Notes under the pieces: model-generated
Database searches by the model: none
What the model was told of the DNA's origin: nothing
The model's input: only the letters and a program-made list of their open reading frames with translations
Made by a program: the position numbers and the translations under genes
IMG/VR virus record: IMGVR_UViG_3300015370_000516
Coordinates: 1-64,000 of that record
Strand: one strand, 5' to 3'
Length of the DNA stretch: 64,000 nt
Source: a virus
Taxonomy: Duplodnaviria > Caudoviricetes
Part shown: positions 38,885 through 60,626 of the stretch, in pieces
Numbering within the stretch: the stretch's first letter is position 1
Layout: each line of letters starts with the position of its first letter

Positions 38885-39054
38885 AATCGAACAGGACAAT
38901 TCTTCAGGTGTAGAAGCTGTGGCTACTCCTTGGACGCTGACCTCAATGCATCACGAAACATTCTCAATAGATTTCTCTTCCAGGAGTCTTCAGACCCTGG
39001 GCAACAAGTTAAACCTAATCACAAACCTGTGGGTTTGTTAAAGGTATAATTCCG
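38885..39054 (+). ncRNA. tnpB 3'-end remnant / omega-RNA-like cassette (copy 3)
   Basis: Encodes NRTGQFFRCRSCGYSLDADLNASRNILNRF (TnpB C-terminal Zn-finger half and RuvC-III); 48/50 nt identical to copy 4 at 38936-38985; the rest of tnpB is absent. Confidence 0.75.
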
Positions 39055-39100
39055 CAGAATAATTACTTACGGATTTGAAAACCTAAAGGAGAAAATTGAC

Positions 39101-39655
39101 ATGAAACAGCAATATCGTAACCTTGTTTCGTACGCAGCGGCAATTGCTATAATTTTCGGATTGTTTGTTGCTTACCTGTTCTATGATATACACAGGGAGG
39201 ATATTGCATATAAGAGGCAGTTTTTTGATCCACCGCCAACGGATACTTCTCTGGTAGCGCTTTTACAAAAAGGTATGAACCCAGACGACCTTGAAAGTGC
39301 GATACTCATCCACAGTTCTCCATTGGCTTACGTTAGGATAGGAAAACGGAATCCTTACTACATTGAACCTGCAATACTCTCAGCGCGTTTCTGGGAAAAG
39401 CCTGGTCTATATCACAATATCGCTGCGGCTGTCGGGGCTTGTGATGCTGTTGAACCGTTGCTTGACGGAGTTTATAATCCTCATGCTGGCGTTGGGGGAC
39501 TTTCTCAGGGTAGTCCTTATGAAAACCTGAGTAAACTGATAGAATACAAATCGGATTGCGAACGAATTTACCGCAAATACGGGAACTATGGGTATAAGGT
39601 TAAGGCTGATTCTTTGGCTAAAAGGGTAGAAGAGCTTAGGGTACGTCTTAAATAG
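39101..39655 (+). CDS. hypothetical protein with an N-terminal transmembrane helix
   Basis: AAGGAG RBS; hydrophobic AAAIAIIFGLFVAYLFY. Confidence 0.6.
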   Translation: MKQQYRNLVSYAAAIAIIFGLFVAYLFYDIHREDIAYKRQFFDPPPTDTSLVALLQKGMNPDDLESAILIHSSPLAYVRIGKRNPYYIEPAILSARFWEKPGLYHNIAAAVGACDAVEPLLDGVYNPHAGVGGLSQGSPYENLSKLIEYKSDCERIYRKYGNYGYKVKADSLAKRVEELRVRLK

Positions 39656-39702
39656 GTTTGGAAATATGTTTGGGGTGGGATTATAGAAACGACTGCTGAT
39701 TC

Positions 39703-40392
39703 ATGAAGTTACTTAAAAAGACAGCGTCCCGCATACAGCTTGACAACCTGGACATTCCAAGCGTCATTTCAAAGTTGGGGTTGCGGATAAAAGATGCACG
39801 CGGCACGTGGATCACGGCTTGGTGCATATTTCACGATGATGGCAAGAACCCCAATCTAAGGATTCGCACAGATTCTGGTGGAGTATTCCGCTGCTTTTCC
39901 TGTGGTGCTAAAGGTAACATTCTTAATCTTGTTGAACGCGCCAAGAATTTAGACCGTGAAGCTGCTTGGCAATACTTAGCTACATTAGGAAAACGCGGAG
40001 TTACCTTAGAGGGGTTACGCCGCAAGCTGGAACGGAGAAAGAATTCAAATCCATTAGTTTGGAAACAGGTACTGAATCAGAGTTTAATTGGAGTTTGTGA
40101 TTTATTATTAGCAATACCGCCAGGCGTTAGAGCAGAGCAGGAAAAAGCTCATGTTACCAATGACGTAAATAGATTTTTCAGGTTGCAAGATCCAGATTAC
40201 TTCTTACTTCGTGATTTGATAGATGCTGTAATGGTAAGAATGGAATACGGCTGTGATGCTGATAGTTTTTCAGATTTGTTGTTTGATATTCAGGGCATTT
40301 GGGAAGTAGCTGAAAGCGTTGGATATTTGGAACGTTACCCAGTGATTTTTCATCAAACGTTAGGTCGGTGTTGGACAACTCCAACCCATTAA
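39703..40392 (+). CDS. DNA primase CHC2 zinc-finger domain protein (no TOPRIM domain)
   Basis: WCIFHDDGKNPNL...FRCFSCGAKGNI; remainder is helical with no recognisable TOPRIM motifs. Confidence 0.75.
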   Translation: MKLLKKTASRIQLDNLDIPSVISKLGLRIKDARGTWITAWCIFHDDGKNPNLRIRTDSGGVFRCFSCGAKGNILNLVERAKNLDREAAWQYLATLGKRGVTLEGLRRKLERRKNSNPLVWKQVLNQSLIGVCDLLLAIPPGVRAEQEKAHVTNDVNRFFRLQDPDYFLLRDLIDAVMVRMEYGCDADSFSDLLFDIQGIWEVAESVGYLERYPVIFHQTLGRCWTTPTH

Positions 40393-40410
40393 AAGAAACG
40401 TAAAAAATAC

Positions 40411-40439
40411 TTGTAATTTATATCTATTCTTGCTAAATT
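40411..40439 (+). promoter_or_regulatory. sigma70-like promoter TTGTAA-N17-TAAATT
   Basis: 17-bp spacer with an extended TG. Confidence 0.6.
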
Positions 40440-40448
40440 GGGGATAAC

Positions 40449-40550
40449 GGGGTGGGACTTCAAGGAATAAAACCAGAATGATTGTAGTATCGGTTGTCTG
40501 GTGGGTAGCCTTGGTACAGTTTGTAGAAGCGGGGCTGTACGTTCCACCCC
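40449..40550 (+). ncRNA. putative structured RNA (three-way junction) or structured 5' leader
   Basis: Four nested stems: GGGGTGGGAC/GTTCCACCCC, CAAGG/CCTTG, ACCAGA/TCTGGT and GTACAGTTT/GGGCTGTAC. Confidence 0.5.
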
Positions 40551-40573
40551 AAATTTAAAGTTGAGATAAACCC

Positions 40574-40927
40574 ATGAATATCAGAGATGGTGTAGCCGGA
40601 AAGTTCTATCTGAGTCCCAAGGGGCTAAAGATTCAGTTTCTCAGGAAACGCGTAGACAGTGACTACGTAGTTATCAAGAATCTCGCTTCTGGTGGGCATG
40701 AGTTAGTCGTTCCAGGTGATATGCAGGTTGAAGCAGATGTGTCCTTCGATCAAGTGATTATTACTCCAGAGGAGCAACCAACTGGCAGACGTAGGTTAGC
40801 TTTGCTTGTGCAACGGATACTCCAGGAATCCGGCATGGCAGTAGCAGAGATTGCTGACATTACCGGAATAGTTCCAGGCGTGGTACAGGATCATTTAGAC
40901 AAATTGCTATCTCAGGAAGGTAATTAG
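40574..40927 (+). CDS. hypothetical protein with a C-terminal HTH-like segment
   Basis: ILQESGMAVAEIADITGIVPGVVQDHLDKL. Confidence 0.55.
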   Translation: MNIRDGVAGKFYLSPKGLKIQFLRKRVDSDYVVIKNLASGGHELVVPGDMQVEADVSFDQVIITPEEQPTGRRRLALLVQRILQESGMAVAEIADITGIVPGVVQDHLDKLLSQEGN

Positions 40928-40928
40928 T

Positions 40929-42395
40929 ATGCCTGCCCAATTTCAAGACTACCAAGCATTAATTAGATCGATGCGTCCCAGGAGCTGGGATGATGTTATC
41001 GGGCAGTTACAAGTAGTCAGGCCTCTACGTAATATGATTTTGCGTGGCAAGATTCCCCAGACTATTTTGTTGGAGGGGGATCGTGGGCTTGGCAAGACCA
41101 CTTGCGCTCGGCTACTGGCTGCTCGGATAAACTGCCGAGAAGTCCCCAAAGACCAGGCCGATCCCTGTGGTAAATGCCCATCATGTGTGGGTATTATCGG
41201 TGGGGCAACAGATTTTGTGGTTTCGGAAATTGATTGCGGGACCAGCAATAAAGTTGACGATATTGTTAGTCTTATTGGGCAGTCCGGGTACGGCTCTGGA
41301 AATAGAACCAGAGTATTTATCTTGGACGAGTTTCATCACGTAACCACCGCTGGCAAGACTGCGCTTTTAAAGCCTCTGGAAGAACCCAATCCCAACGTTC
41401 GCTGGATCTTATGCACCACCGAGGGACACAAGATTACGGGCACAATTAGGTCTCGATGCACCGCTCTTCAGTTCAGACCGATCAACGAAAAGACGATCAA
41501 GGCGTTTATTCAGCAGATCATCGAACGCTTAATCATCACCGGAGAAACTGAGGTCAAAGAGTTTGATGATGCCGCACTGGTAGCACTATCCGAACTATCA
41601 GATGGTTCGGTACGACAAGCTCTGTCCTTAGTTGAGCAGGTCTTGGCATTTGGGGGGGAGATTTTAACACCTGCAGTCGTTGAATTAGTATCTGGCAAAG
41701 CAACCTCTGAGCAGATTAGTCGATTTGTCATGGCTATTGTCAAAGGTCGTTTGGCTGCTGCAGACCGTCTAATTCGAGAGGCTTATACCGATGAATTTAC
41801 CGATGCTCTGTTGACTTATCTCTATCGGGTGTATATTCCTGGCAGGGGTGGTTCAGATGAGGTTGGAAGAAGGCAGTCAGCCCTAATGGTTCGAGCAGTT
41901 CAGACGTTTCAACCACATTATTCACATTCTGTAAATCGGGATGGATTACTCTTCGCTTTGTATGATGCACTTCATGGAATTGACGATGTTAAGGTATTTG
42001 AAGCCTCACCGGAAGCCAAAACAACTTCAGCAATCCCAGAAATGGATGAGTTAGAGCATATTAATCAATTAGTTGCTCTGGCTGGCAAGACTGGTCCTGT
42101 TGCCGTAGCCGAAGTTTGGGATGGTAATCGGATGATTATAGAACTTGGAAAGAAGAAAGTACCGGTTATGGTTATGCGCCCCGATCTTGTTTGGAATGGT
42201 ATGATATACAAAGTTCCTGAGATTCCGGAACAGGTACGTTATGTAATTCTGGTTAAGCATATTGATAAAATCATAAATATTGGAGAATTCCAGCCAAAGG
42301 AATTGATAGCAAACAAACTCATGTACACCAACGAGGAAGCTCGTGATAAACTCGCCAAGAAAGCAGCTCTTGAAAATGAGAAGGCATCCACATAA
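40929..42395 (+). CDS. dnaX: DNA polymerase III gamma/tau-like clamp loader subunit
   Basis: RPRSWDDVIGQ, GDRGLGKTT, C..CPSC zinc motif, ILDEFH, LLKPLEEP and TIRSRC. Confidence 0.9.
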   Translation: MPAQFQDYQALIRSMRPRSWDDVIGQLQVVRPLRNMILRGKIPQTILLEGDRGLGKTTCARLLAARINCREVPKDQADPCGKCPSCVGIIGGATDFVVSEIDCGTSNKVDDIVSLIGQSGYGSGNRTRVFILDEFHHVTTAGKTALLKPLEEPNPNVRWILCTTEGHKITGTIRSRCTALQFRPINEKTIKAFIQQIIERLIITGETEVKEFDDAALVALSELSDGSVRQALSLVEQVLAFGGEILTPAVVELVSGKATSEQISRFVMAIVKGRLAAADRLIREAYTDEFTDALLTYLYRVYIPGRGGSDEVGRRQSALMVRAVQTFQPHYSHSVNRDGLLFALYDALHGIDDVKVFEASPEAKTTSAIPEMDELEHINQLVALAGKTGPVAVAEVWDGNRMIIELGKKKVPVMVMRPDLVWNGMIYKVPEIPEQVRYVILVKHIDKIINIGEFQPKELIANKLMYTNEEARDKLAKKAALENEKAST

Positions 42396-42416
42396 TAGCA
42401 CGTTGGGAGAATACAA

Positions 42417-43574
42417 ATGCAATCATTTACCGTAACGTTTAATCGTCAGCAGTTGGCTGATATACTGTCCAAGATGGTAAAGAATCTGAAACCTAAGCCG
42501 ACTGAGACGGTGATTCGTAGGATGGTTCTCATTAAGCCTACAGAAGATGGTGGCATGGTTGTCATACTGGCGACCAATGAGAAACAGACTTATTTGTTCC
42601 GTAATATAGCCTATCAGACGGATTCTGGAGAACTATACCCCATTGCAGTTGACTTGATAAAACTTTCCAAGTTTGTGAGCTGTTCGGGTGGGGAAACGGT
42701 TAGTTTCCGGGCTGATTCTGACAAGGATAAACTATCGCTCAAGGCTGGCAATACTAAAGCCGATCTTGCTTACTTGCCGGGAACTGACTATATTGAGCGA
42801 CTTGGCCAGGACGAAACAGCCTTCATGCCACGCGGTGCAGCTGTGGGTGAAATTTCAGACCTACCATCGTTTGTCAAGACGCTTCAAATCATGAGCAGAT
42901 GCACCGATGATGATCCGCTCAAATCCTTTCTTGACGGAATCTATACGGATGGGGAAGGAAATTTCATGGCTACCGATCTGCTGCGCGGCATGTTAGTTCC
43001 GATGGAAGACCATCGGTGGAAAATCAGAACTGTGGTCCCCAACGATTTAGTAAATATGCTGGGGGACTTATCTGCCGACAGAGTCTTGATATTCTGGGAT
43101 CAGGATGAGATTTGGTTCTCTGATTTAGAAGGCAATGTTATTATTTCAGGGTTCTGCCGAGAGATTGAAAAGTTCCCACAAGCAGAACTCCAGAAGGTCT
43201 TCCAGGAGGCCGATAAAGCAACCATTGGCATCGTCCTCGACGCCGCAGAACTTAAAACGGTACTGGACAGAATACGCACTTTCTTCAGCGATAATGTTCT
43301 GTGCACCCTTGCGTTTGGGGATAAGCTCAAACTCGTGGGGGTGGGAAATAACAAAGACCGCATGCAGGATGTTATTTCCTATTCGCTGTCCGATGGCGAG
43401 ATTCCGGAGGAAATGTCGTTCCAGTTATACCTTTCCGCGCTGGAGTTGATTACTTCTGTGTACGAGGGAGAATTTAAGCTGGACATCGTTTCCTTGCACA
43501 AGTCTATCCACTGTGAGAGTTCTTCGCTGGGGATTAAGATGTTCGTCGTTCCATATATTAGGATGGAGAGTTGA
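42417..43574 (+). CDS. dnaN: beta sliding clamp-like protein
   Basis: Three-domain length (385 aa); LATNE, LDGIY and MATDLLR motifs; C-terminal MFVVPY; adjacent to dnaX. Confidence 0.7.
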   Translation: MQSFTVTFNRQQLADILSKMVKNLKPKPTETVIRRMVLIKPTEDGGMVVILATNEKQTYLFRNIAYQTDSGELYPIAVDLIKLSKFVSCSGGETVSFRADSDKDKLSLKAGNTKADLAYLPGTDYIERLGQDETAFMPRGAAVGEISDLPSFVKTLQIMSRCTDDDPLKSFLDGIYTDGEGNFMATDLLRGMLVPMEDHRWKIRTVVPNDLVNMLGDLSADRVLIFWDQDEIWFSDLEGNVIISGFCREIEKFPQAELQKVFQEADKATIGIVLDAAELKTVLDRIRTFFSDNVLCTLAFGDKLKLVGVGNNKDRMQDVISYSLSDGEIPEEMSFQLYLSALELITSVYEGEFKLDIVSLHKSIHCESSSLGIKMFVVPYIRMES

Positions 43575-43864
43575 TGCAGCGAACTACAGAAATGGTAGTA
43601 GCTACCATGATCAATGCCATTCCAATTAACAGGCTAATGGCAATCTGTGAAGATTTTGCTCTGGGGTCGGAACCAACCGAGACCATAGACGTACTAAGGC
43701 AGCGGGTTAGGGCACACGTGGTCAATCTATCAGACGGGTTGACCCCAGTAGTTGCGCCGCCAGTAGATCCAGAGAAGAAGTCGGGGCTAAGAATAAAGAA
43801 ATCCTCTCAGGACTTCGACCCCTTTGCACCCAAACGTCGGATTGTGCTCCAGAGACGAAAATAA
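43571..43864 (+). CDS. hypothetical protein
   Basis: ORF track; its TAA stop overlaps the IS right end. Confidence 0.55.
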   Translation: MMQRTTEMVVATMINAIPINRLMAICEDFALGSEPTETIDVLRQRVRAHVVNLSDGLTPVVAPPVDPEKKSGLRIKKSSQDFDPFAPKRRIVLQRRK

Positions 43865-43865
43865 A

Positions 43866-44996
43866 CTACCCACGAGTAACTTCGTGGATTTTAACCCTGT
43901 CATGGGACGAGTCTTCGGGCTGGTTTATAGCAGCCCCGACCGCGGCGATGTTCCGTGCCGCATTAACATCGGCATTTAGAACAGCACTACAGTTTGCACA
44001 GGAAAAGATTTGACCAGAACGATGCCCCAGACTGCCACAAAAAGAGCATATCTGGGATGTATAAGCGGGGTTAATTTTAATCACAGCGACCCCGGTTCGC
44101 ATGGCCTTGTAGATAATCATCTGCTGAAGGGCGTAGAATGCCCAGCTATTGTGCAGACCTCGTTGGGATCTGCGCAGTTTTGGATTGGTGCGTTTCCGAA
44201 TGTCCTTCAAGTTCTCCAGGGCGATGCTTCTGCCAGAAGCAGCAGCAGTTTCTACAATCTTTTTGCTGATGGTATGGTTGACGTTCTTGACGGCGCGAGA
44301 TTCTTTGCCACTAAGCTGTTTGAGGGTACGACGGGCGTTTTTGCAAGTGCTCCGTTTTCCCGTTCCTGCCTTCGATTGAAGCGATCTGCGAGTTTTGTGC
44401 TGTTTCAATCGGTAAGTATTAAGAATCTCTCCACCAAACTGAACGCCATCCGATGTAGTTGCGATATTCTTAATTCCCAAATCCACCCCCAGAATTCCAT
44501 CCGAAGTAGAGGATTCTGGGACATCCTCCTTAATCTGTATATTTATAAAATAATGCTTTTTGCCTTTGGTCAATTGTGCCGAAGTGGGATGTTGACCCGA
44601 CAATGCTTGTCTTTGGTAATCTCCCAAATGAAGGTAAAACTTCTCTCGGCTCTCCAAGAGGGTAAGTTTCACGCTCCAGTCATGTTCGTTGAAGGAAAAA
44701 ATCCGTTCGTCAAAATCAACGCTGGAAGGTTTAAATCTGGAATTGGGGTTCCGTCTTAAAGCCACTGCTGTACGTGCGATGGCACGGGATGCAAGATTAG
44801 CCTTCAGTTTAAAAATGGAACGTAGATTATAGTAGCATCCTCGATGAAGTGTGAATTGTCGTTTTTTGTCTGTCTTGCGTCCGTAATCCGCCACAAAATT
44901 GCAGGCTGCTGAAAAGGCTTTAAGGGTTCTTTCAATATGTTCCTGTTGTGGCTTTGTAGTCAACAATTTACAGGATATAGTGCGGATGGCTTTCAT
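43866..44996 (-). CDS. tnpB: TnpB RNA-guided endonuclease
   Basis: RuvC triad intact (GVDLG, ALENL, NADVNAARNI); CSFC/CANC zinc finger; NPAYTSQ. Confidence 0.95.
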   Translation of the reverse strand: MKAIRTISCKLLTTKPQQEHIERTLKAFSAACNFVADYGRKTDKKRQFTLHRGCYYNLRSIFKLKANLASRAIARTAVALRRNPNSRFKPSSVDFDERIFSFNEHDWSVKLTLLESREKFYLHLGDYQRQALSGQHPTSAQLTKGKKHYFINIQIKEDVPESSTSDGILGVDLGIKNIATTSDGVQFGGEILNTYRLKQHKTRRSLQSKAGTGKRSTCKNARRTLKQLSGKESRAVKNVNHTISKKIVETAAASGRSIALENLKDIRKRTNPKLRRSQRGLHNSWAFYALQQMIIYKAMRTGVAVIKINPAYTSQICSFCGSLGHRSGQIFSCANCSAVLNADVNAARNIAAVGAAINQPEDSSHDRVKIHEVTRG

Positions 44997-45002
44997 GCTC
45001 CA

Positions 45003-45031
45003 AATATAGCAAAACTTTCACTAAAAATCAA
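45003..45031 (-). promoter_or_regulatory. tnpB promoter TTGATT-N17-TATATT, probably giving a leaderless mRNA
   Basis: The -10 box ends 7 nt before the A of the tnpB ATG. Confidence 0.5.
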
Positions 45032-45109
45032 GAAGAATTTGAGAAATTTAACCAGAGCGGATGGCATAATTTCTACGATTGGAATCGTGGGGCTATTGTC
45101 ATAAATATC

Positions 45110-47608
45110 ATGAGATGTACAGAATGTTCTCTATCCAAGACAGCAACACAGGAAGTAGAAGGCACTGGCCCCGTTAATACAGATACCCCAATTATGCTTA
45201 TTGGGGAAGTTCCTGGAGAGGACGAGGATAAGCGGGGCGTTCCTTTTGTTGGTATAGCTGGTCAGCAAGTGCTGGATCCAATACTAAAGGCAGTTGGTCT
45301 GGATCGTAGAAAGATATGGATATTCAACGTATTGCGCTGCCGCCCGCAGAACAATAACATTGATTCTCCAGAAGCAAAAGATGGCTTAGGGATATGTCCT
45401 GGGCTATTTCTTTTTCCAGCTATAGAAGAACTCAGGCCCAAGATCATAGTTACTTTGGGTGCAATTTCCTCTAATCTACTTCTGGGCAGTAAGCGAGGTA
45501 CTCGGCTGGCTGATTTACGGGGTCGCCCAGTTGAGAAATCCTTCGGGGAACACACCTGTTACGTAATGCCTTCCTATCACCCAGCATCGTTGTTACCAGG
45601 TCGTAATCCAGCTAACTATCAGATATTGCTTGAGGATATGCACCGAGCCGTTTCTTGGCTTAATGGTGCTCAGGTAGTAATTGCTGAGAAATATCGTACT
45701 TTAAAGTCGCGTACAATGGTTGATAAGTTTTTTGATTGGATGCATAATGGTGAAATGAATGATTTTATTTATGACGTGGAAGCACAAGTATATGATGCTA
45801 ACAGCAAACGCCCCAATATTTATAAGGACAAAATTCTGGGCATTAGTATTTCCTGGAGAGCTGGTCACGCTGTTTATCTTCCGTTACGTACCAGACCAGC
45901 TTTTAGTTATGAGTTGGAATCCTATTGGGGGGAGGATCAGGATTATGTAGTTGGTAGATTGAAAAAGGCTTTGGAAACTAATATAAGCAAAGGTGGGCAA
46001 AATGCTAAGTATGATAATATGATTTTAGAATGTGATTTAGGTATTAAGGTTTCTGGTTATAGTTTTGATACTATGATTGCTTCTCATTTGCTTGATGAGA
46101 ATCGAATGTCCCATGCCCTGGACGAACAGGTGCGTATTCATATACCAGAGAAATCGGGCTGGAAGGGCATGGCCCAGAAGGGAGACATGGCATCATTGTC
46201 TCTGGATACTATTGCGCAGTATTGTTGTTTAGACGCTGATTTAGAGCTTAGACTCAGAGACATTTATGCTGAACGTTTATGTAAGTACCCGCAATTTGAG
46301 CATCTATTTTATCATCATTGTATTCCTTACCAGCGCACTTTACAACGCATGGAATTAACCGGCGCACCGGTTGATGTATCAGCAGTTATCAAACTCAAAG
46401 CGGATTTGGAAGCTGAGATAACTAAAGCTGAAATCAGAATGCGTAAGGTTTTTGGAAGCACGGTTAATGTAGATTCCCCGACCGATGTTTATTTAGCGCT
46501 GAAGCAGAATGGCGTAGACGTAACGGCTTTAGAGGAAACCGATGATGATGATGTTCCTATTCTGGATGCTAAAGGGAATCCTAAGATAAGTACGAAAAAA
46601 GCTATGTTGGGTAGTTTATCGCAATCTTCGGGGTTGGTACAGTTGATTATGAATACCAGAGTGTTACAGAAAATGTTAAGTACCTATGTGATACCTATTG
46701 AGAGATTTCAGATAAACAATAGAATTCATGGATCATTTAAAATAACCGGAACGAAAACGGGGCGAATATCAAGTTCTGAACCCAATCTCCAAAACATCCC
46801 ACGTGGTGGTGAACTTGATAATATAAGTCATGTTTGGGGCAAGCGGGTAAAGAGTGTTTATTGTGCTCAGGCTGGCTGGAAATTGATACAGGGCGATTTT
46901 TCACAAATGGAAGTTGGGGTATTGGCTGATTATTCCAGAGATGCAGCTCTGGTGGCTGCTTGTTCTACCGAAGATGTTCATTTTGCTGCAGCTTGTTCCT
47001 TATTTGGTTTGGATTTTAAAGAGGCGTATTCACGCTTTTTGCGGGGAGATCCATACTTGGCGAGTAGGCGGCAAATGATAAAGAGTATTGTATTTGGTCT
47101 TATTTACGGATCATCAGATGATTCTCTGGCAAAGTCTTATGGTCTTGACGTATCAGTGTTCAAAGATTTCCGGGCTAAATTCTTTCAGCGGTTTGGTGGG
47201 GTAGAGAAGTTTATTGGTAACACTCACCAGCAAATTGATGCTAATAAAGAAGTGATTTCCAAGTTTGGTCGGCATCGGAGAATACCCTACGCGGGACAAA
47301 AAGATAAATTGGGGAGAGCTCACCGGCAGGCGGTCAATAGTTTAATCCAAGGAACTGCCGCTGATATATGTGCCCAAGCTATCTATCGATTGGAAGATGA
47401 GTTAATAAAGTATAAGTACAGAGCCAGGCCAGTTTTAACAGTTCATGATTCTATTGTTACTGAAGTTCCTGATGAGGAAGTGAACGAGGTTTGTGCTTTA
47501 CAGCGTGAGATTATGCTGATGAAGCCGTTGCCGGATTTTAGCGTATCTTTGCGAGTCGATATTGAGGTAGGAGAACGCTGGAGTGAACTCAAGAAGGTGG
47601 GGGTATGA
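45110..47608 (+). CDS. polA: family A DNA polymerase with N-terminal uracil-DNA glycosylase domain (SPO1-type architecture)
   Basis: UDG family-4 motifs (CTECSL, IGEVPG..ED..G.PFVG, CRP, YHPA); 3'-5' exonuclease DVE/NAKYD/YCCLD; polymerase GRISSSEPNLQNIPR, DFSQME, K..VFGLIYG and VHDS. Confidence 0.92.
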   Translation: MRCTECSLSKTATQEVEGTGPVNTDTPIMLIGEVPGEDEDKRGVPFVGIAGQQVLDPILKAVGLDRRKIWIFNVLRCRPQNNNIDSPEAKDGLGICPGLFLFPAIEELRPKIIVTLGAISSNLLLGSKRGTRLADLRGRPVEKSFGEHTCYVMPSYHPASLLPGRNPANYQILLEDMHRAVSWLNGAQVVIAEKYRTLKSRTMVDKFFDWMHNGEMNDFIYDVEAQVYDANSKRPNIYKDKILGISISWRAGHAVYLPLRTRPAFSYELESYWGEDQDYVVGRLKKALETNISKGGQNAKYDNMILECDLGIKVSGYSFDTMIASHLLDENRMSHALDEQVRIHIPEKSGWKGMAQKGDMASLSLDTIAQYCCLDADLELRLRDIYAERLCKYPQFEHLFYHHCIPYQRTLQRMELTGAPVDVSAVIKLKADLEAEITKAEIRMRKVFGSTVNVDSPTDVYLALKQNGVDVTALEETDDDDVPILDAKGNPKISTKKAMLGSLSQSSGLVQLIMNTRVLQKMLSTYVIPIERFQINNRIHGSFKITGTKTGRISSSEPNLQNIPRGGELDNISHVWGKRVKSVYCAQAGWKLIQGDFSQMEVGVLADYSRDAALVAACSTEDVHFAAACSLFGLDFKEAYSRFLRGDPYLASRRQMIKSIVFGLIYGSSDDSLAKSYGLDVSVFKDFRAKFFQRFGGVEKFIGNTHQQIDANKEVISKFGRHRRIPYAGQKDKLGRAHRQAVNSLIQGTAADICAQAIYRLEDELIKYKYRARPVLTVHDSIVTEVPDEEVNEVCALQREIMLMKPLPDFSVSLRVDIEVGERWSELKKVGV

Positions 47609-49466: not shown

Positions 49467-49485
49467 AAAATTTAATAGATAGTAT

Positions 49486-49514
49486 TTGTAATATACAAGT
49501 AAAAGTATTATATT
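49486..49514 (+). promoter_or_regulatory. sigma70-like promoter TTGTAA-N17-TATATT
   Basis: Good consensus upstream of the recombination operon. Confidence 0.65.
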
Positions 49515-49536
49515 ACCATAAAGCGATGATACTGAG

Positions 49537-50817: not shown

Positions 50818-50832
50818 AAGAGGGACTATAAC

Positions 50833-51150: not shown

Positions 51151-51169
51151 AGTCATGGGTTTCCTGTCA
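51131..51169 (-). mobile_element. orphan IS200/IS605 right-end remnant
   Basis: Minus strand TGACAGGAAACCCATGACTTCAATCGTGGGTACTTGAAT aligns with the intact element's TGACAGGGTTAAAATCCACGAAGTTACTCGTGGGTAGTTTAT. Confidence 0.55.
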
Positions 51170-51177
51170 CAAGAATC

Positions 51178-51771: not shown

Positions 51772-51772
51772 C

Positions 51773-52324: not shown

Positions 52325-52874
52325 TGATGAACTGGTGGTTATGTCTTTGGATCTGGGTCCTAATCACACCGGTTTCATGATATTTTGGGGTGAGGAGCGT
52401 ATTGCCGAGTTTGGCACGCTCCTTCCCCAACTGAGTTTGTCGATGCCTAAACGGATTCAGTATACCACCGGAATTTTAAACGTCTTGTGTCGAGTATACG
52501 GAGTGCATGAAGTGGCTATCGAAGATTATGCCCACAAGCTGCGTAGTGCCAGCGTGACCTGTATCCGGGAACAGGGTGGCGCAATAAAGAATATGCTTAT
52601 TGAATCAGGTATAAAGGTGTTTATTTATAATGTATCAGTGATCAAAAAGTTTGCCACTGGCTTAGGCAGGGCTACTAAGAAGGACATGGCACGTTCTTTT
52701 GACATTATTGGAAAAGAAGGTAAGCGTATTACTTTTAGAAGAGAAGCCAGGCGTAAACAAAGTTTATTCACAGAGGATGAAATTGATGCTTGGTTCATAG
52801 GACAATTGCACTATGACAATGTGCGCCGCAGTTTGTTAGGTAATGAACTATGGTCATTTGAACAGATCGCTTGA
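52317..52874 (+). CDS. RuvC-like Holliday junction resolvase
   Basis: SLDLGPNHTG, VAIEDY, IKKFATG.GRATKKDM and DEIDAW; the ATG at 52317 fits better than 52110. Confidence 0.8.
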   Translation: MINDELVVMSLDLGPNHTGFMIFWGEERIAEFGTLLPQLSLSMPKRIQYTTGILNVLCRVYGVHEVAIEDYAHKLRSASVTCIREQGGAIKNMLIESGIKVFIYNVSVIKKFATGLGRATKKDMARSFDIIGKEGKRITFRREARRKQSLFTEDEIDAWFIGQLHYDNVRRSLLGNELWSFEQIA

Positions 52875-54040
52875 AAATGCCAATCCAAAAACTCATCATA
52901 CAGAATTTCCAAGCCATAGCCAAAACTAAGCTTGATCTATCTCCCAACCTGAACGTCATCTTTGGAGAAAACGGGATGGGCAAGAGTATTTTAATTCGGG
53001 CTTTGCGATGGGTTTACAGAGATGCCTTTCGGGGTACTTGGTTTGCCAAGACGGGGGAAGAGCGATGTCGTGTTGGCATTCAGTTGTCTTCAGATTTGAT
53101 GGTCATCAGAGACATTGAACGTTCTCTGGATGATAGTGGAGCCACTAAGGTTTTAAAAGTAAATCGTTATATTATCAAAAGAAGGGGGCTTGAGGACGTT
53201 GAGTTCAACAAGTTCAAAGATTTGCCTCCAGACGTACAAGAAGTGCTGGATATAAGTCCGGCTTTAATTTTAGGAAAAACCAGCGATGAAATTATTGACT
53301 TGAATTTTGCGCATCAACAAAATGATGCTGTCTTTTTGATGAATAAGCCTAAAAGTTTATCAGCTCGTCTGCTGTCCCACGTAGTCGGAGTTGATCCGGT
53401 GTACAAGGCCATGCGCGAATTAGCCAGAGAACAGCGTGCGGACCAGCAGGAAATTGGGCGTTTAGGAGATCAAGCAGAGGAACTTCAGACTGAGATAGCA
53501 GCCTTTCCAGAACAGCAATTGCGGATGATATTCGCTAAATTGGAATCTCAGGTTTCAGCTTTAAGAGATCTTAATACTCATATTGAAACTGTAACTTTCC
53601 TGGGCGATGATTTAGAACGTATTAACCAAGAAGGCAGGACAGCGGTGTCTGAGGTAAAAGCCTGTAAAAATGCTTTGGAGAATTTGCCTTGGCAAGAAGC
53701 AGAACAACTTTGTACGTTGTTGGTCAATCTTGAAGCTGGGTACGAGGAATATAAAACTAAAAGTACTGCACTTGAACAAGCAGAACTAAGTCAAAGTTCT
53801 TGTACTGTTGCTTTTGATACAGTAAACTCATTTCTTGACGACTGGGAACAGGTTGTTCCCTTGATGCAAAGCTGGGCATCTGCTTATAATGATGAAGCAA
53901 CTCTCGTCATACATCTTGAAACTTTGTGTGTTGCCAAAAATGATGCATATACTGAATACCAGAAACTACTCAGCGAATTAGGTCTTTGTCCTACTTGTGG
54001 GGCTGATAAAGAACACTGGAATTTGCAAGGGGATATGTGA
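52871..54040 (+). CDS. Rad50/SbcC-like ATPase, N-terminal half ending in a zinc hook
   Basis: IQNFQA, Walker A GENGMGKS, Q-loop NFAHQQ, coiled coil and C-terminal CPTCG. Confidence 0.85.
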   Translation: MKMPIQKLIIQNFQAIAKTKLDLSPNLNVIFGENGMGKSILIRALRWVYRDAFRGTWFAKTGEERCRVGIQLSSDLMVIRDIERSLDDSGATKVLKVNRYIIKRRGLEDVEFNKFKDLPPDVQEVLDISPALILGKTSDEIIDLNFAHQQNDAVFLMNKPKSLSARLLSHVVGVDPVYKAMRELAREQRADQQEIGRLGDQAEELQTEIAAFPEQQLRMIFAKLESQVSALRDLNTHIETVTFLGDDLERINQEGRTAVSEVKACKNALENLPWQEAEQLCTLLVNLEAGYEEYKTKSTALEQAELSQSSCTVAFDTVNSFLDDWEQVVPLMQSWASAYNDEATLVIHLETLCVAKNDAYTEYQKLLSELGLCPTCGADKEHWNLQGDM

Positions 54041-54240
54041 TGAATTTTATCAATTGTAGCACAGACGACCTTGTTGATGAACTGCAAAAACGACTGGAGC
54101 TTCGGTACGGCAACAGGTATAAAGTTAAAATTGCATATCAGGCATCGGTGGTATGTTTTACAAATATACCTCCTGCGTTTGGTGCTGATCCATATAATTG
54201 GTGTACACTAACAGACCCCAAAAACGTTATTTTCCGATGA
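54037..54240 (+). CDS. small hypothetical protein
   Basis: Overlapping start/stop junctions on both sides. Confidence 0.5.
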   Translation: MMNFINCSTDDLVDELQKRLELRYGNRYKVKIAYQASVVCFTNIPPAFGADPYNWCTLTDPKNVIFR

Positions 54241-55235
54241 CTCCCATTCTAAAAGCAGTGTTCTTTACTGACACCCATATAAAGGGGGTATCCCCCCGTT
54301 CCCGAATTGATGACTACCCACGTGCCATTCTGGAGAAGGTCAAGTGGGTCATTGACTTCGGGATAGAAAATGGGGTAGACGTATTTCTTCATGGTGGGGA
54401 TTATTTTGATACCTACAGCGTAGAGAACTCGGTTCTAAACGCCTTTGTGGGCGCGTTAGATAAGGCCAGAGACCACAAAATCCCCATCGTGGGTACAGTG
54501 GGCAGCCATGACCAAGTAGGCTATCAAATCGGGGCTATGCATAGATCCTCGGTGGGGGTCTTGGAAGCAACTGGGGTTATTACGATATTACGTCAAGGCG
54601 AGACGTGGGAACGTAATGGAGTTTTTATCATAGGCTGCCCCCACAAAATAGATTTGGATTTGGGGAACAATTCTGATTATGACGTTATCCCAGACAAATC
54701 TCATCCTGGTATCAAGAGCACCATATTAATGGCTCATGGCTATATTACGGATAAGCCTTTGTCTTATGCCTGCACTTTAATTGATGATGTTAAGACTGCC
54801 GCCGACGTCGTGTTATCCGGTCATTATCATACTGGATTTTCACCTTACGTGCGTCAGGATGGCAAGATTTTCTGTAATCCAGGATCACTATCCCGTGATG
54901 AGGATAACAAGATAAATCGGGTACGTAAACCGTCATGTCTGTACCTTGAAATATTTGATGGTGCGCCGCCTTCGTTGAAGATAGTACCTATATCCTGTGC
55001 TCACACAGGTCAGGAAATTTTTGGGGACATCGAGCCTATCTCTGAACCTGATGCTGGAGATATAGCCAGAATGGTTGAGTATCTGAAACAAGAAACCGAG
55101 GCAGCCGGCAAGACCTTTGACATAGAGCGAGCCATTGCCAATGTGCCGGTGGGTAAAGACCCTGTTTTAGTTGCCGAAGCTCGGAGTATGGCTTTGGCGA
55201 TGGTTCAGAAAGTAACCACGGAGTCAGGACAATGA
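54237..55235 (+). CDS. Mre11/SbcD-like nuclease
   Basis: DTH, GGDYFD, GSHD, AHG, GHYH and NPGS metallophosphoesterase motifs. Confidence 0.9.
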   Translation: MTPILKAVFFTDTHIKGVSPRSRIDDYPRAILEKVKWVIDFGIENGVDVFLHGGDYFDTYSVENSVLNAFVGALDKARDHKIPIVGTVGSHDQVGYQIGAMHRSSVGVLEATGVITILRQGETWERNGVFIIGCPHKIDLDLGNNSDYDVIPDKSHPGIKSTILMAHGYITDKPLSYACTLIDDVKTAADVVLSGHYHTGFSPYVRQDGKIFCNPGSLSRDEDNKINRVRKPSCLYLEIFDGAPPSLKIVPISCAHTGQEIFGDIEPISEPDAGDIARMVEYLKQETEAAGKTFDIERAIANVPVGKDPVLVAEARSMALAMVQKVTTESGQ

Positions 55236-55477
55236 ATGCTGAAGAACAATTAGGAGCTCTGCAAAAGAAGCGGCAAAAGCTGTCTGAAGATAAAGCCAGA
55301 GCAGAGGCACGTGTTGAGGGCGCGCGTAAAGCCCAGCAAGAGGCCTTGGCTAAGTTAGCTAAACTGGGTATAACCGATCCCCTGGTTATTCCCGCCAAGT
55401 TAGTCGAGTTTCAACAACAGGCTACAAGTCTTGCTCAGGAGATTGATAGTGGTATCCCAGACAGGTACCGGGTTTAA
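55232..55477 (+). CDS. small coiled-coil protein (possible middle piece of split Rad50)
   Basis: Continuous heptads; AGGA RBS. Confidence 0.55.
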   Translation: MNAEEQLGALQKKRQKLSEDKARAEARVEGARKAQQEALAKLAKLGITDPLVIPAKLVEFQQQATSLAQEIDSGIPDRYRV

Positions 55478-56087
55478 CACACAGAGCTATCGTCTGGCTT
55501 ACGACGGCTACCAACGGGATTTGGGTGCGCACCAGCAACGTCAGGGGGAACTGGGCAAGGTTCTGCAGCGCAAGGCAGAAATATCTCGTCAGGTAGCCGT
55601 CCGAGAAATTGCTATGCAGATCATGGAGGCTGTATCTCTGTCTGCCCAGGAGCTCATCCACCAGAAGATAGACGTTCCGGTGACTGCGGCTCTCAGGACT
55701 ATCTATCAGGATAATTCTTTATCGTTTAGCACCGAGTTAGAGCGCAGTGCCGACCGCATGGAAGTTGACTTTCGTTTCCGTCGTGGGGATGAACCTATAC
55801 CTGGCCCTATCTTGGATTCGGAAGGTGGGGGGCTGGTGGATGTAGCCGGTTTCACTTTACGTCTATGTCTTTTCAGGTTGTTGGGTTGTAAAGGTCCAAT
55901 TTGTCTGGATGAACCTTTCCGGCAAGTTGACAAGAGCGCTTGGCCTCGTGCCATTGAGTTTGCCCAACAAATATCTTTGGGCATGGGGATTCAATTGTTC
56001 ATAGTTTCCCACGAGACCGCATTTACCGATGTGGCTGGCAGAATAATTCGCGTGGTTGGGCGAGGTATAGTTAGACAGGAAGCATAG
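55449..56087 (+). CDS. Rad50/SbcC-like ATPase, C-terminal half
   Basis: Signature-like DSEGGG, Walker B/D-loop CLDEPF, H-loop VSHE; GTG 55449 with CAGGAG RBS. Confidence 0.85.
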   Translation: MVSQTGTGFNTQSYRLAYDGYQRDLGAHQQRQGELGKVLQRKAEISRQVAVREIAMQIMEAVSLSAQELIHQKIDVPVTAALRTIYQDNSLSFSTELERSADRMEVDFRFRRGDEPIPGPILDSEGGGLVDVAGFTLRLCLFRLLGCKGPICLDEPFRQVDKSAWPRAIEFAQQISLGMGIQLFIVSHETAFTDVAGRIIRVVGRGIVRQEA

Positions 56088-56768
56088 ATGTCTCGTAAAC
56101 AGGAACTACATGGGGCTGCGCTGTACCGCAGTAAGTATTGCAGTTTTGTAACTCTGTGGCTTTACAACAATCCGCGTATGACCCCCAGCAAGGTACGGGA
56201 TCTGCTGATTGATAAATTCGGGCCAGAAGCCTCTTTTTCCGAGCCCCATATTCGGGCTTTTATGAAGAATTATTACCCTGAGATTTACAATGCTGCTATA
56301 AGTACTGGAGAAGGTGGTTTTGTAGCTGTTGCCAGTTTGACGGAAAGCAAGTTATTTGGTAGCGTTGTAGACCCGATGGACTATCACCAGCTTATGATTG
56401 GGCTGTTGGAGACCAAGTTCAAGGAAGCTGAAGAAGAGTATAACGTTATTAGAGACCGTTTGGTTGACAAGACAACCCCTGCAGAAGATGTTGTTAAGAT
56501 CGGTACAACAGTGGTAAAGTTACGCGATCAGATGACCAAGCTTTCACGTGAAATCAGGGAGTATAAAAAGTATGCAGATGAATGGCAGAGGACTTTTGAC
56601 TTCGGGGATAAAATGGGGGATTTAATTTATCGTATGACTGAGTTGATTGTGTCTATAATATACCCAGAGGTTACATCTGATCGGCTTTTTACCGTGCGCG
56701 ATGAATTCACGATAGCGCGTAGACAGTTAGCCAGAGAGTTCAAAGTTCCGCCGGAGAAACTGGGATGA
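56088..56768 (+). CDS. hypothetical protein, candidate terminase small subunit
   Basis: N-terminal HTH-like segment plus coiled coil; upstream of TerL; inferred from position. Confidence 0.35.
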   Translation: MSRKQELHGAALYRSKYCSFVTLWLYNNPRMTPSKVRDLLIDKFGPEASFSEPHIRAFMKNYYPEIYNAAISTGEGGFVAVASLTESKLFGSVVDPMDYHQLMIGLLETKFKEAEEEYNVIRDRLVDKTTPAEDVVKIGTTVVKLRDQMTKLSREIREYKKYADEWQRTFDFGDKMGDLIYRMTELIVSIIYPEVTSDRLFTVRDEFTIARRQLAREFKVPPEKLG

Positions 56769-58423
56769 GCCTGGAACGTAATAAAATATACGCGATGCAT
56801 GCACTGGACGGACTCAGGGAGATGCCGGATGAGAGTGTACAACTGTGTTTTACCAGCCCGCCATATTTTAACTTAAGAGACTACAAATCAGAGCCACAGA
56901 TTTGGGATGGAGATTCATCGTGTCATCATGTTTGGAGGGGGGTGATTAGCCCAAGACCAAATCAAACTGGAGGGGTGGGATATAGATCGGCAACGCAATT
57001 AGCAAATAGAGGTTCTCACTGTGTAGAATATAATAATCGTGTTAGTTTAAGTAATGTCTGTTCTCTCTGTGGTGCATGGAGAGGAGAACTTGGTCAGGAA
57101 CATACGGTAGAGTTGTATGTTAAGCATCTTAAGGATATTTTTCATGAAGTACATCGAGTTTTGCGTAGAGACGGGATTTTTTATTTGAATCTGTCTGATA
57201 GCTACGCTACCCATGCAAGCAACCGAGCTGGTCAATTTGGCAAGGAAATTAAGGAAGGATTCGATGATGTTTTTACTCGTTCCAAACCCCCAGCCAGTCA
57301 AATGGGGCTTAAAGAAAAAGACCTTTGTGGTATTCCCTGGCGCGTTGCCTTCGCATTACAAGGATTCGCTGTCATTCCAGGCAAGGAACTTAACCGAGCT
57401 GCTGACCTGCTGAAGATCGCCAGAGAAACCCGAGACTGGGAGATGGTAACTGCAGTTGAGGGAATGCTACGTGGTTGGTCATTCCTATCTGAAATACTTG
57501 ATCCTTATTGGCTGCGGTCTGACATTATCTGGTCAAAGAGAAATTGTATGCCATCCAGTGCTACGGATAGACCTACAACTTCGCATGAGTACATTTTTAT
57601 GCTTACCAAAAGCGGAACTACTCAATTCTGGACACATCGTGATTTGAATGGAGTCAGGAAACAGCCAAAGCCTGATTATCGTTGGATACATGAAACAACT
57701 GGAGAAGAGGTGTCAGTTAAACCGATTGGCTGGACTCCTCAGAATAAAATGGGGTGGATTAGAGTCAATCTCTGGGAGGGACATGATTATCTTTATGATG
57801 CTGTGGCTGCGCGAGAGAGATCAATAACGGATCCAAATAGTAAATCCTCTATGACATTTGGGGCAAAACATGGAAAATATAATACTATCGAATTGGCACA
57901 TGCCGCCAATCTTGGGCATAAATGGGTATACGAATCAACTCGCAATCTTCGTTCCGTTTGGACGCTTAGTATTAAGCCCAGACCCGAAAATCATTTTGCC
58001 TCTTTTCCAGACGAACTTTGTAGCTTAGTTATCGAAGCTGGGAGCAGTCACAAGGCTTGTTCTAAATGCAGAGCGGCGTGGATGAGAGTGGTGGGAAAAA
58101 ATGAGAGTGATTGGGAAGAAAGGAAAAGACGGGGGGAACCTAATCGGGCAGGTCTTGCTGGTGCTGCACAAATTGGGTCTGGTAATTATAAAAATCGGGA
58201 ACCCAAAACTCTCGGTTTCCGTCCGTCTTGTGATTGCGAGAACGATGGCTCCGGTCGTTGTCTGGTTCTTGATCCTTTCATGGGGCGTGGTACGGTTGCC
58301 GACGTGGCTCGCAAATTAGGCCGTGATTTCATTGGCTTTGACTTAAATCCTGAATATGTAAAGATGGCATACGATAATTTAGGATCGAAGACGTTTCTGG
58401 AACTATTAGATGGCATCGATTAA
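56765..58423 (+). CDS. DNA amino-methyltransferase with large inserts
   Basis: FTSPPY, WSKRNCMP, HFASFP and VLDPFMGRGT. Confidence 0.9.
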   Translation: MSLERNKIYAMHALDGLREMPDESVQLCFTSPPYFNLRDYKSEPQIWDGDSSCHHVWRGVISPRPNQTGGVGYRSATQLANRGSHCVEYNNRVSLSNVCSLCGAWRGELGQEHTVELYVKHLKDIFHEVHRVLRRDGIFYLNLSDSYATHASNRAGQFGKEIKEGFDDVFTRSKPPASQMGLKEKDLCGIPWRVAFALQGFAVIPGKELNRAADLLKIARETRDWEMVTAVEGMLRGWSFLSEILDPYWLRSDIIWSKRNCMPSSATDRPTTSHEYIFMLTKSGTTQFWTHRDLNGVRKQPKPDYRWIHETTGEEVSVKPIGWTPQNKMGWIRVNLWEGHDYLYDAVAARERSITDPNSKSSMTFGAKHGKYNTIELAHAANLGHKWVYESTRNLRSVWTLSIKPRPENHFASFPDELCSLVIEAGSSHKACSKCRAAWMRVVGKNESDWEERKRRGEPNRAGLAGAAQIGSGNYKNREPKTLGFRPSCDCENDGSGRCLVLDPFMGRGTVADVARKLGRDFIGFDLNPEYVKMAYDNLGSKTFLELLDGID

Positions 58424-60419
58424 AGAGATTGAACAAATGGATGCACTCAGGTCAGCCGACTTGGAAGGTCATGAGGTTGATCCGAGTGTCATTTGGGAAG
58501 AGGAGCCGGCTGCGTCCTTTAGGGAATTTAACGAATCCCAGGCGTATCTGGGGGCGTTTCCCCTATCCGGCAGGCAATACTACGACGTGGAGCAATTGGT
58601 GGGCTTAGAGCCTAAGAATACTTTTAATCCTAACCGTAAATACGATCAGCTTGTTCTGGTTTATGGCAAGGGTGGTGGCAAAGACGAGGTAGCTTCCAGA
58701 ATTGCTCTGTATATCGTTCATCTGCTATTGTGCCTGCGCAGCCCACAAGAATATCTTTTAGGTATTCGCAGTCGTTCTAATTTACACTTGATTAACGTTG
58801 CCAAGAAGGGTAGACAGGCAGAAAAAGTATTTTTTCAATACTTTAAGAACAACTTGTTGGGGTCTCGTTGGTATAAAGACCGGTTTGATATCACGGAACG
58901 AAATCAATGGTATTCCAAGGTAGTCAAACGTTCTAAAGTACGTGGCAAGATTATAGTAACCGGAAACGGAATTATTTTCCCAAAGAACATAGAGGCGGTT
59001 GCCGAAACGACCGAGAACGAATCTTGGGAAGGTTACAATCCGGTGCTTTACGTTCTGGATGAGATTTCTGGGTTCACTTCTGCGGTGGAACTGGAGAAGG
59101 CTTGGAAGATTTATAATACCGCCAAATCATCTACTGATAGCCGAGTAACTCGTAATTTCAAGGGTCTGGGTGTGGTAATGTCCTATCCACGCCAGGACGA
59201 AGGCGATGTTATTCTTGAACTGTTCAAACAATCTCAAGAGGGTGGTAGATGTTTTGGTAGTTTAGCTTATCCCTGGCAGTCTAAGGGTATGCACAATTTT
59301 TCAGCAGATACTTTTGTGCTGAGTCATCCTCGTATTAGTTCCTATTTTGATTTAGAGAGTTGTGGCATAGAGATTCCAGTAAATTTCTTAGGCTCTTTTG
59401 ACTCTCACGACCCGCGTACTCTGGACGATTCTATAACCAAGTTTTTATGTATCCCCCCACCTACGTCTGGTGGGTGGCTGGAATACCCTGAACGAATTAA
59501 GCCTTTGATTTCCTCTAAGACAGATCCAGAATCACCGCGCCACAGGCTTCCCTTGTTTGAGACCCGCGATATAATTGAGCATACCGCTGACCAGGACGGT
59601 AACGTAGTTCACTACTTGATTAAACAATTACAATACTGCCGAGCAAGATCGCCGTATGAACGTCTTGAGATTCCTCGTGTAGCTTGGCTGGATGCTGCTC
59701 AGAAGCACTGTGATGCCGTACTTAGTATTGGGCATCTTGAGCAACGGGTGATTGATTCAGGTGGCCAAGCGGTTAGTATTGAGACTGTTGTGGTTGATGA
59801 TGAGCTTACTTGGAGACCGGATGCCAGTCGGGGAATTCAAGTTTCATTAAGTAATATAGAACAATGGTTGACTGTTATTATCCCAGATAGCATCCGTTTG
59901 GTTGCGGTTGGGGCAGATGCCTGGAACTCAGCTCATCTGGAGGAGAAACTTCGCAAACGTGGGATTAAGGTTGAAATTCATAATCTTAATTTAGAGGACT
60001 ACGATTTGCTGAAACGGCAAATCTACTTAGGGGGCATGGATTTTATAGAAGGTGAAACCCCTGGGCAGCTTAGAAATCTTATCTATGCGGGTGTTAATCA
60101 TAAGCCAGTTAGGAAGCCTGGCTTTCTTCAGGATTTAGCTGACGGGGTTTGTGGTTTAGTTCGTCTGCTGACTGGCCGAGATGCTCGCGGACATCTATCC
60201 GCCGGCCGCCGAGCAATTGAATCTTTGCCGGTTCCGGTAATTGGGGGGATGTCTCCGGTATCAAATCCTATGGATCGCATCGAAGGAGCTCCATCAATGG
60301 GGTCGGGTGGAATAAGAAATATACCACTGCCACGCGGATCGGGGGTACAACGATCTTCCACTCCACCAGCGCAAGGACCCAGCAGAGGATTGCCAAGACC
60401 GGTTACTTTGGGTAGGTAA
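58410..60419 (+). CDS. terL: terminase large subunit
   Basis: Walker A YGKGGGKD, Walker B YVLDEI, motif III MSYP; nuclease LDAA..HCD, GADAWNS and QDLAD. Confidence 0.88.
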   Translation: MASIKEIEQMDALRSADLEGHEVDPSVIWEEEPAASFREFNESQAYLGAFPLSGRQYYDVEQLVGLEPKNTFNPNRKYDQLVLVYGKGGGKDEVASRIALYIVHLLLCLRSPQEYLLGIRSRSNLHLINVAKKGRQAEKVFFQYFKNNLLGSRWYKDRFDITERNQWYSKVVKRSKVRGKIIVTGNGIIFPKNIEAVAETTENESWEGYNPVLYVLDEISGFTSAVELEKAWKIYNTAKSSTDSRVTRNFKGLGVVMSYPRQDEGDVILELFKQSQEGGRCFGSLAYPWQSKGMHNFSADTFVLSHPRISSYFDLESCGIEIPVNFLGSFDSHDPRTLDDSITKFLCIPPPTSGGWLEYPERIKPLISSKTDPESPRHRLPLFETRDIIEHTADQDGNVVHYLIKQLQYCRARSPYERLEIPRVAWLDAAQKHCDAVLSIGHLEQRVIDSGGQAVSIETVVVDDELTWRPDASRGIQVSLSNIEQWLTVIIPDSIRLVAVGADAWNSAHLEEKLRKRGIKVEIHNLNLEDYDLLKRQIYLGGMDFIEGETPGQLRNLIYAGVNHKPVRKPGFLQDLADGVCGLVRLLTGRDARGHLSAGRRAIESLPVPVIGGMSPVSNPMDRIEGAPSMGSGGIRNIPLPRGSGVQRSSTPPAQGPSRGLPRPVTLGR

Positions 60420-60436
60420 CAACTTGGCTTGGTTCA

Positions 60437-60460
60437 TTTTGCACCTGAATTTACTATAAC
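60437..60460 (+). promoter_or_regulatory. candidate late promoter TTTTGCA-N6-TTTACTATAAC
   Basis: Matches 375-398. Confidence 0.5.
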
Positions 60461-60469
60461 CTAAAAGAG

Positions 60470-60626
60470 AATCGTAAGAATGAGATGTTTCGATGTATTA
60501 GTTGTGGGTACACAGAGGATGCTGACCTCAATGCATCTCGAAACATTCTCAATAGATTCCTCTTCCAGGAACATACAGACCCTGGGCAACAAGTTAAATC
60601 CTTGGTATGTTAAGGAGATAATTCCG
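60470..60626 (+). ncRNA. tnpB 3'-end remnant / omega-RNA-like cassette (copy 4)
   Basis: Encodes NRKNEMFRCISCGYTEDADLNASRNILNRF; tail supplies AAGGAG and the GTG start of the next ORF. Confidence 0.75.

Follow-up and report, generated by a model that had tools for sequence, protein, structure and literature searches.

Decayed right ends of a TnpB transposon family, probably retained as gene leaders in a large phage

The 64,000-nucleotide stretch of phage DNA analysed here (the window) consists of bases 1-64000 of the 85,471-bp IMG/VR viral contig IMGVR_UViG_3300015370_000516 (Caudoviricetes; estimated completeness 46%) and carries four copies of the 3' end of a tnpB gene together with the tail that follows it. 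We consider these copies to be the decayed right ends of a family of TnpB transposons, which have been retained as leaders of phage genes and whose capacity to act as guides is a by-product of the decay, and give this reading a probability of about 0.6. A preliminary description had proposed that they are cassettes trimmed on purpose to the guide RNA of TnpB (omegaRNA). They are tnpB 3' ends, and in two of them, the remnants C and D, a covarying fold is preserved as a whole, but the cognate gene is broken, the breakpoints vary, and right ends are fused to start codons, which argues against such a trimming. Together with two more copies on the contig, the four copies would be the remains of one solo-tnpB transposon family that colonised the phage lineage several times.

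Copies of the right end on the contig

The following remnants were identified, all scores referring to a covariance model of the RNA fold (R1):
1-49, + strand: tail A, comprising the final C-terminal codons and the end motif of a tnpB element (49 nt) and cut by the contig start; R1 positions 107-157, 39 bits
33288-33329, + strand: tail B, a 42-nt right-end stub with the terminal hairpin only; weak R1 match
38885-39054, + strand: remnant C, the last ~43 tnpB codons and the tail, with a 13-nt hairpin insert; full structured region, R1 159.6 bits
60470-60626, + strand: remnant D, the last ~47 tnpB codons and the tail; full structured region, R1 181.6 bits
Contig 82996-83024 (beyond the window): stub E, 29 nt

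Common to them is an 18-nt end motif, GTTAARGRKATAMTTCCG, which is present four times in the window, always on the + strand (32, 33312, 39037, and 60609; 0.03 copies expected). The contig as a whole contains six copies, the other two being located beyond the window at 83007 on the + strand and at 84845 on the - strand, the latter (84828-84845) forming the left end of a complete element. The tails at 1-49 and 33288-33329 had been recognised before and are confirmed, and stub E and the inverted copy are added to them. An exact-motif scan of viral contigs resulted in four matches, which were judged to be chance because no upstream sequence is common to them. At stub E, a 75-codon open frame (contig 82784-83011) ending with ...EALRVC is closed by a TAA from the stub; it overlaps the open reading frame (ORF) 82665-82988 in another frame.

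For C and D, position and translation confirm that both consist of the 3' end of tnpB and its tail. In the tnpB frame they encode the zinc-finger/RuvC-III end of TnpB, score above the cut-off of the Pfam family PF07282 (Cas12f1-like TNB; E-values of 3.4e-07 and 4.2e-07), and are 71-74% identical to the full TnpB of the family. The identity of 48/50 nt that had been reported for their core applies to the best 50-nt window, while 101 of 129 ungapped nucleotides are identical in total, and the comparison of the flanks agrees with the earlier statement that the upstream sequences are unrelated. The codon differences between C and D are half synonymous and half non-synonymous (nine each), and therefore both have diverged as coding genes and have been truncated separately afterwards. 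C is a mosaic of two sub-lineages of the family, implying recombination among copies. A blastn search with C against 50,697 phage records gave no matches, and the 669-aa neighbour of D has no relatives in the viral contigs searched.

The claim that C and D start at the same AATCG holds in so far as the breakpoints are close, but they are not identical, C sharing GAATCG only and D in addition AAAGAG. The AAAGAG at the left edge of D also belongs to the native leader of the phage promoter. The junction is located within a TAAAGAG that is common to the promoter leader and tnpB, and the leader at contig 76372 matches it (CCTAAAGAGG, and likewise TACTATAACCTAAAGAGG). Because AAAGAG is native to the promoter leader as well, the deletion generating D probably ran between two TAAAGAG microhomologies.

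Structure of the intact element

The intact relatives are solo-tnpB elements of ~1.15 kb with terminal inverted repeats of ~22 nt and 8-bp duplications of the flank. Three of them are contained in single contigs:
L010 2274-3424: full element, 8-bp duplication TAACCTAA
L010 10487-11596: full element, 8-bp duplication TACGCAAG
L019 2978-4093: full element in a phage, 46% protein identity, 8-bp duplication AAATGATA, perfect 21-nt inverted repeat

Their duplications are exact and their ends match at 20-22 of 22-24 positions. In the two full copies of the related contig L010 an 8-bp sequence is followed by an end of ~22 nt starting with YGGAAT, then by tnpB and by a right end that is the left end in inverted complement, after which the 8 bp are repeated. 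Between the left end and tnpB there is either the ATG at once or a promoter-bearing spacer of ~60 nt. The tnpB genes of the elements have 351-357 codons with the RuvC residues D, E, and D in place, and their stop codon is overlapped by the right end. All eight left ends examined have a TA immediately before the 8 bp. A fourth apparent duplication (AAAAACAT) pairs the left flank of L012b (a copy running from L012 7214 to the contig end) with the right flank of L011; as these are two separate copies with 83% identity, it was not counted.

Most other members of the family, including those with a serine recombinase, showed no inverted ends, and judging from this distribution the inverted-end form is a feature of a sub-clade. 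The cellular TnpB relatives (30-51% identity; contigs of Magnetobacterium, Gracilibacteria, Micrarchaeia, and Dehalococcoidia) have a gene of 186-197 aa with a Resolvase domain directly upstream. Searches of the contig for PF01797 (Y1), PF00239 (Resolvase), PF00665 (rve), and PF01609 (DDE_Tnp_1) gave no matches. PF00665 and PF01609 are also absent from G000, G002, G003, and G005, a search that did not include other DDE families or the host.

Right ends in the leaders of phage genes

All + strand tails sit just upstream of + strand ORFs, and the long ORFs of the window are nearly all on this strand. The features at the junctions are:
33329-34042, + strand: sigma-70-like ORF (Pfam Sigma70_r2/r4) whose GTG spans the right-end/flank junction; orthologue of similar length in phage G001
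60447-60469, + strand: motif resembling a phage promoter, with its leader, immediately in front of D; also present at 390 and contig 76372
60626-61168, + strand: ORF whose AAGGAG and first start-codon base come from the right end of D

B and D carry an AAGGAG variant of the right end, located 8 nt before a GTG that is composed of the last G of the element and a TG of the flank. There is no other in-frame start at 33329 and 60626 before the conserved parts of the proteins. In G001, the closest syntenic phage, the orthologues of both ORFs (43-45% identity) have the same N-terminal position and a ribosome site of their own, and the orthologue of ORF 60626 (45% identity) starts within four codons of the GTG with its own GGAGG and ATG. 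Given the TA rule, the native starts of both ORFs would have been ATG. The flanks of B and D, which had been taken for guides, are instead the first codons of phage genes, with the ribosome site and start codon in the right end. Because the AAGGAG and the G of the GTG derive from the right end, its retention in B and D can be explained without a guide role. In A, C, and E the variant is AAAGGT, which lacks a ribosome site, and no start codon is joined to these ends.

A plausible course of events is that elements oriented with transcription entered the space between promoters and start codons of the phage, and that the last ~20 nt of the element then became part of the leader of the downstream gene. 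In B and D the right end contributes the G of the GTG as well as the Shine-Dalgarno sequence.

Promoter adjacency had been stated for both remnants. D is located directly behind a recurrent promoter-like motif but C is not, and a scan with the sigma-70 consensus did not reveal a + strand promoter upstream of either. The recurrent motif, TACTATAAC, is found at 390, 60452, and contig 76372, and inside the left end of the element at 84863. It also precedes other genes at 390 and contig 76372, and the promoter-like motif before D is the downstream operon's own. A motif TTTACTATAAC(CTAAAGAG) is present 40-50 nt before ORF starts (388-398 and 60450-60460; contig 76372 and 84863) and also in L010. 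It is probably a phage-specific promoter, and perhaps it is read by the phage sigma factor encoded at 33329.

Cognate and distant tnpB genes

A cognate tnpB with the predicted C-terminal peptide had been expected outside the window. It is present on the same contig, but the gene is broken by an in-frame TAA. A protein search with a 55-aa fragment retrieved one longer protein, P0001, whose C-terminus is near-identical to remnant D; P0001 itself has no relatives in the viral contigs searched. The last 119 nt of the contig match the metagenome contig L012 at 100%; L012 adds 7.7 kb at the 3' end and contains the remaining part of the cognate gene and the right end of this resident element, which is 97% identical to D. 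The element starts at contig 84828 and its gene 71 nt further in, at contig 84899. The gene comprises 360 codons with the TAA at codon 54, and a second sample has a contig of 99.9% identity with the same TAA. The sister copy (L011/L013) carries a different in-frame stop. Recoding of these stops was rejected because all other genes are normal under table 11.

The window is not free of TnpB protein, as had been supposed, and another intact gene is located beyond it:
43866-44996, - strand: distant TnpB of 376 aa; PF07282 and PF01385, NCBIfam guided_TnpB 182.9 bits; 25% identity to the remnant family
Contig 73595-74707 (beyond the window), - strand: second distant TnpB of 370 aa, intact, canonical

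These two intact TnpBs reach an identity of no more than 25-32%, with ends that hardly match the RNA model. They are distant from each other and from the remnant family and presumably represent separate IS1341-type insertions. Judged by its sequence, the TnpB at 43866-44996 is not cognate to the remnants.

Decay of the copies and related phages

Remnants in L010 start ~45 nt and ~130 nt further upstream in tnpB than C and D, and L010 4181-4382 is an internally deleted mini copy of ~200 bp that has kept both ends. Random 5' breakpoints in related phages, which the preliminary description had named as a sign against its proposal, are thus present in the L010 remnants, in the internal deletions, and in the 42- and 29-nt stubs B and E. 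C, D, B, and E, and perhaps A, would have arisen by illegitimate or microhomology-based deletions and by recombination between copies, and such deletions would have removed the left end and most of tnpB.

The exact right end and flank of all relics, their ragged left junctions, and the microhomology at the D junction would also be consistent with an "abortive homing", in which a break triggered by TnpB is repaired by incomplete copying from the right-flank homology followed by end-joining inside tnpB. However, ordinary deletion and selection for the leader produce the same pattern, the mini copy in L010 keeps both ends, and direct evidence for abortive homing is missing, so that we regard it as very improbable.

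Other large phages with this family, having two and five copies, contain full-length genes only, and G001 does not contain any copy. The 883-bp segment 38820-39702, which comprises remnant C and the ORF 39101-39655, is absent from G001, where the helicase gene abuts the primase gene. This ORF encodes 184 aa with a hydrophobic stretch at the N-terminus and has no Pfam or NCBIfam matches.

At L010 2274-3729 a full element is directly followed by a 290-nt 3' fragment of a different sub-lineage, with TAACCTAA being present three times and two guide-scaffold copies placed 297 nt apart. Recombination between two occupied alleles apparently gave rise to this tandem. For the full and partial copy, re-insertion into one site was also considered but dropped, because the "filler" CAGCGA is tnpB sequence of another sub-lineage and illegitimate recombination between occupied alleles suffices.

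RNA fold and guide function

The consensus fold of seven copies contains five helices between AATCG and TTCCG. In the covariance model of 24 family members 93% of the cells pair and 20 of the 29 pairs show compensatory change, although the alignment was fitted to the model itself, which favours pairing. None of 500 shuffles scored as high, and slid controls came nowhere near. The covariance model, which had been suggested as a check, thus reveals strong covariation and an RNA-type structure in the tnpB 3' end. C and D hold all five helices and match all 157 positions of the model (160 and 182 bits), and by this measure they are complete scaffolds of the omegaRNA type that a compatible TnpB could load. 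Both would be transcribed within phage mRNAs. B has kept the last hairpin only, A, B, and E all fall short of the complete scaffold, and B and E are too short for guide RNAs. A search of the window with the model gave no further copies.

It could be possible that the terminal hairpin has been co-opted as a cis-regulatory leader, in which AAGGAG pairs with an upstream CTCCT/TCCTT arm and thereby sets the translation rate or mRNA stability, the upstream tnpB part of C and D being neutral baggage. The ribosome site of B and D is located in the 3' arm of the terminal helix, compensatory changes between copies keep the pairing, and both ORFs must start at the junction GTG. However, inheritance from active elements, in which the hairpin would serve the omegaRNA or transposition, accounts for the covariation equally well, and the AAAGGT copies A, C, and E offer neither ribosome site nor start codon for such a control. 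A regulatory hairpin therefore seems rather improbable to us.

Alternatively, C and D may be working standalone omegaRNAs. An intact cognate TnpB elsewhere in the genome would then process and load their leader transcripts in trans and cleave co-infecting relatives at TA plus flank, with homing or exclusion as the result. This would account for the complete covarying fold, for the near-identity of D to the resident right end, and for its position directly behind the recurrent promoter motif. Since TA abuts the duplicated 8 bp, it would be placed in the empty site exactly at the position of a target-adjacent motif (TAM) relative to the guide, and trans-acting examples are documented (PMC10691335; 10.1101/2023.03.14.532601). 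However, the sole cognate tnpB seen whole is broken by the TAA in two samples, the sister copy is broken too, the two intact TnpBs of the contig are far diverged in sequence and ends, and the breakpoints differ among relatives. In addition, the seven flank "guides" have no second target in the contig or the related loci with up to three mismatches allowed. For an empty-site search no sister genome was close enough, G001 being only 45-49% identical in protein. Altogether, we consider working standalone omegaRNAs unlikely. [quoted passage not shown] In such a system an intact TnpB from the unassembled half of the genome would cut C and D from phage mRNAs, with TA as TAM and the first 16-20 nt past the insertion (in D the first codons of the gene) as guides, and would cleave relatives without the insert, again leading to homing or exclusion.

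Several observations weigh against decayed right ends retained as leaders. The breakpoints of C and D are no more than 6 nt apart despite their different sub-lineage origin, and both remnants keep every conserved helix and intact reading frames with no insertion or deletion in the fold. A shared edge and a whole fold are a pattern that selection on an RNA unit would also produce. It is not obvious what the tail of C would contribute to the next gene, which is equipped with a separate ribosome site 46 nt further downstream. A flank duplication is missing from the resident full copy (ATATGAAC versus TCTTTCCG), and therefore the simple insertion model does not suit every copy, and the family searches described above did not reveal a transposase able to make 8-bp duplications. 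Finally, L012b is open over all 191 codons visible and ends at the contig edge, and because of this an intact cognate TnpB might exist in the unassembled half of the genome, as standalone omegaRNAs would require.

Relation to known systems

In the account given in PMC10691335, standalone (effector-less) omegaRNAs acting in trans were already described by Altae-Tran et al. 2021. Like these, C and D consist of a tnpB-less 3' end and right end with the scaffold, there are effector loci in the same genome, and each copy has a distinct flanking "guide". Unlike in these, the nearest cognate gene is broken and the copies are located inside phage mRNA leaders, two being fused to start codons; a trans function here would be by analogy. 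Another known type are the PATE-like non-autonomous IS200/IS605 derivatives, which keep both ends and are mobile (Meers et al., 10.1101/2023.03.14.532601). Like the remnants, PATEs derive from TnpB elements, encode no protein, and would depend on TnpB and a transposase supplied in trans. In contrast to PATEs and miniature inverted-repeat transposable elements (MITEs), the left end has been lost in C, D, B, and E, and only the mini copy L010 4181-4382 has both ends. Scaffolds of tnpB without the gene have therefore been known before (PMC10691335; 10.1101/2023.03.14.532601), and the locus does not constitute a novel type of system. What is unusual is that the elements have inverted ends and 8-bp duplications that follow TA, and that the right end has taken over two translation starts.

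Neither the IS200/IS605 family (PMC13565253) nor the IS607 family (PMC6188088) has terminal inverted repeats or target duplications. Because of its inverted ends (~22 nt) and 8-bp duplications the element fits the pattern of neither. The cellular relatives resemble the IS607 elements, which combine a serine recombinase TnpA with TnpB, in having the Resolvase-domain gene upstream, whereas the phage copies have inverted repeats and duplications and no tnpA. Inverted ends are known for DDE-associated branches of TnpB and for solo TnpBs mobilised in trans (PMC10691335), and the family shows both the inverted repeats and the target-site duplication that characterise DDE-mobilised transposons. It shares with the DDE-associated branches the inverted ends around a solo tnpB, the 3' end of tnpB a few nucleotides from the end of the element, and the flank duplications. 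It differs from them in that no DDE transposase was found on the contig or in three related phage records with the two Pfam families tried, and in that its cellular relatives adjoin IS607-type serine recombinases.

The locus mainly shows how a TnpB transposon family settled in a large phage and decayed from the left, while the right end was absorbed into translation starts. For annotation this means that GTG starts and ribosome sites can be built from transposon ends, and that contigs can break inside tnpB copies. If the relics were active guides, a single phage nuclease would be served by several guides dispersed over the phage's own mRNA leaders, an arrangement that would lead naturally towards array-based RNA-guided systems and serve in the competition of phage against phage.

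Genomic setting

Both ends of the contig (84828-85471, and 1-49 of the window) fall inside copies of the TnpB element, and the assembly probably stopped there because of these repeats. The replication genes around remnant C are:
37437-38819: DnaB-like helicase, near remnant C
39703-40392: CHC2 primase zinc finger, near remnant C
40929-42395: clamp-loader-like gene

Within the window, neither an Rfam family at gathering score nor a tRNA or tmRNA was found. The gap before the AAA+ gene and the helicase contains about five direct repeats of 33 nt and additional degenerate copies (36140-36404), which by their arrangement look like the iterons of a replication origin. Internal repeats spaced by ~600 nt with 81-92% identity (8006-8093/8600-8687 and 8254-8333/8857-8936) are present in the 1651-aa ORF at 6988-11943.

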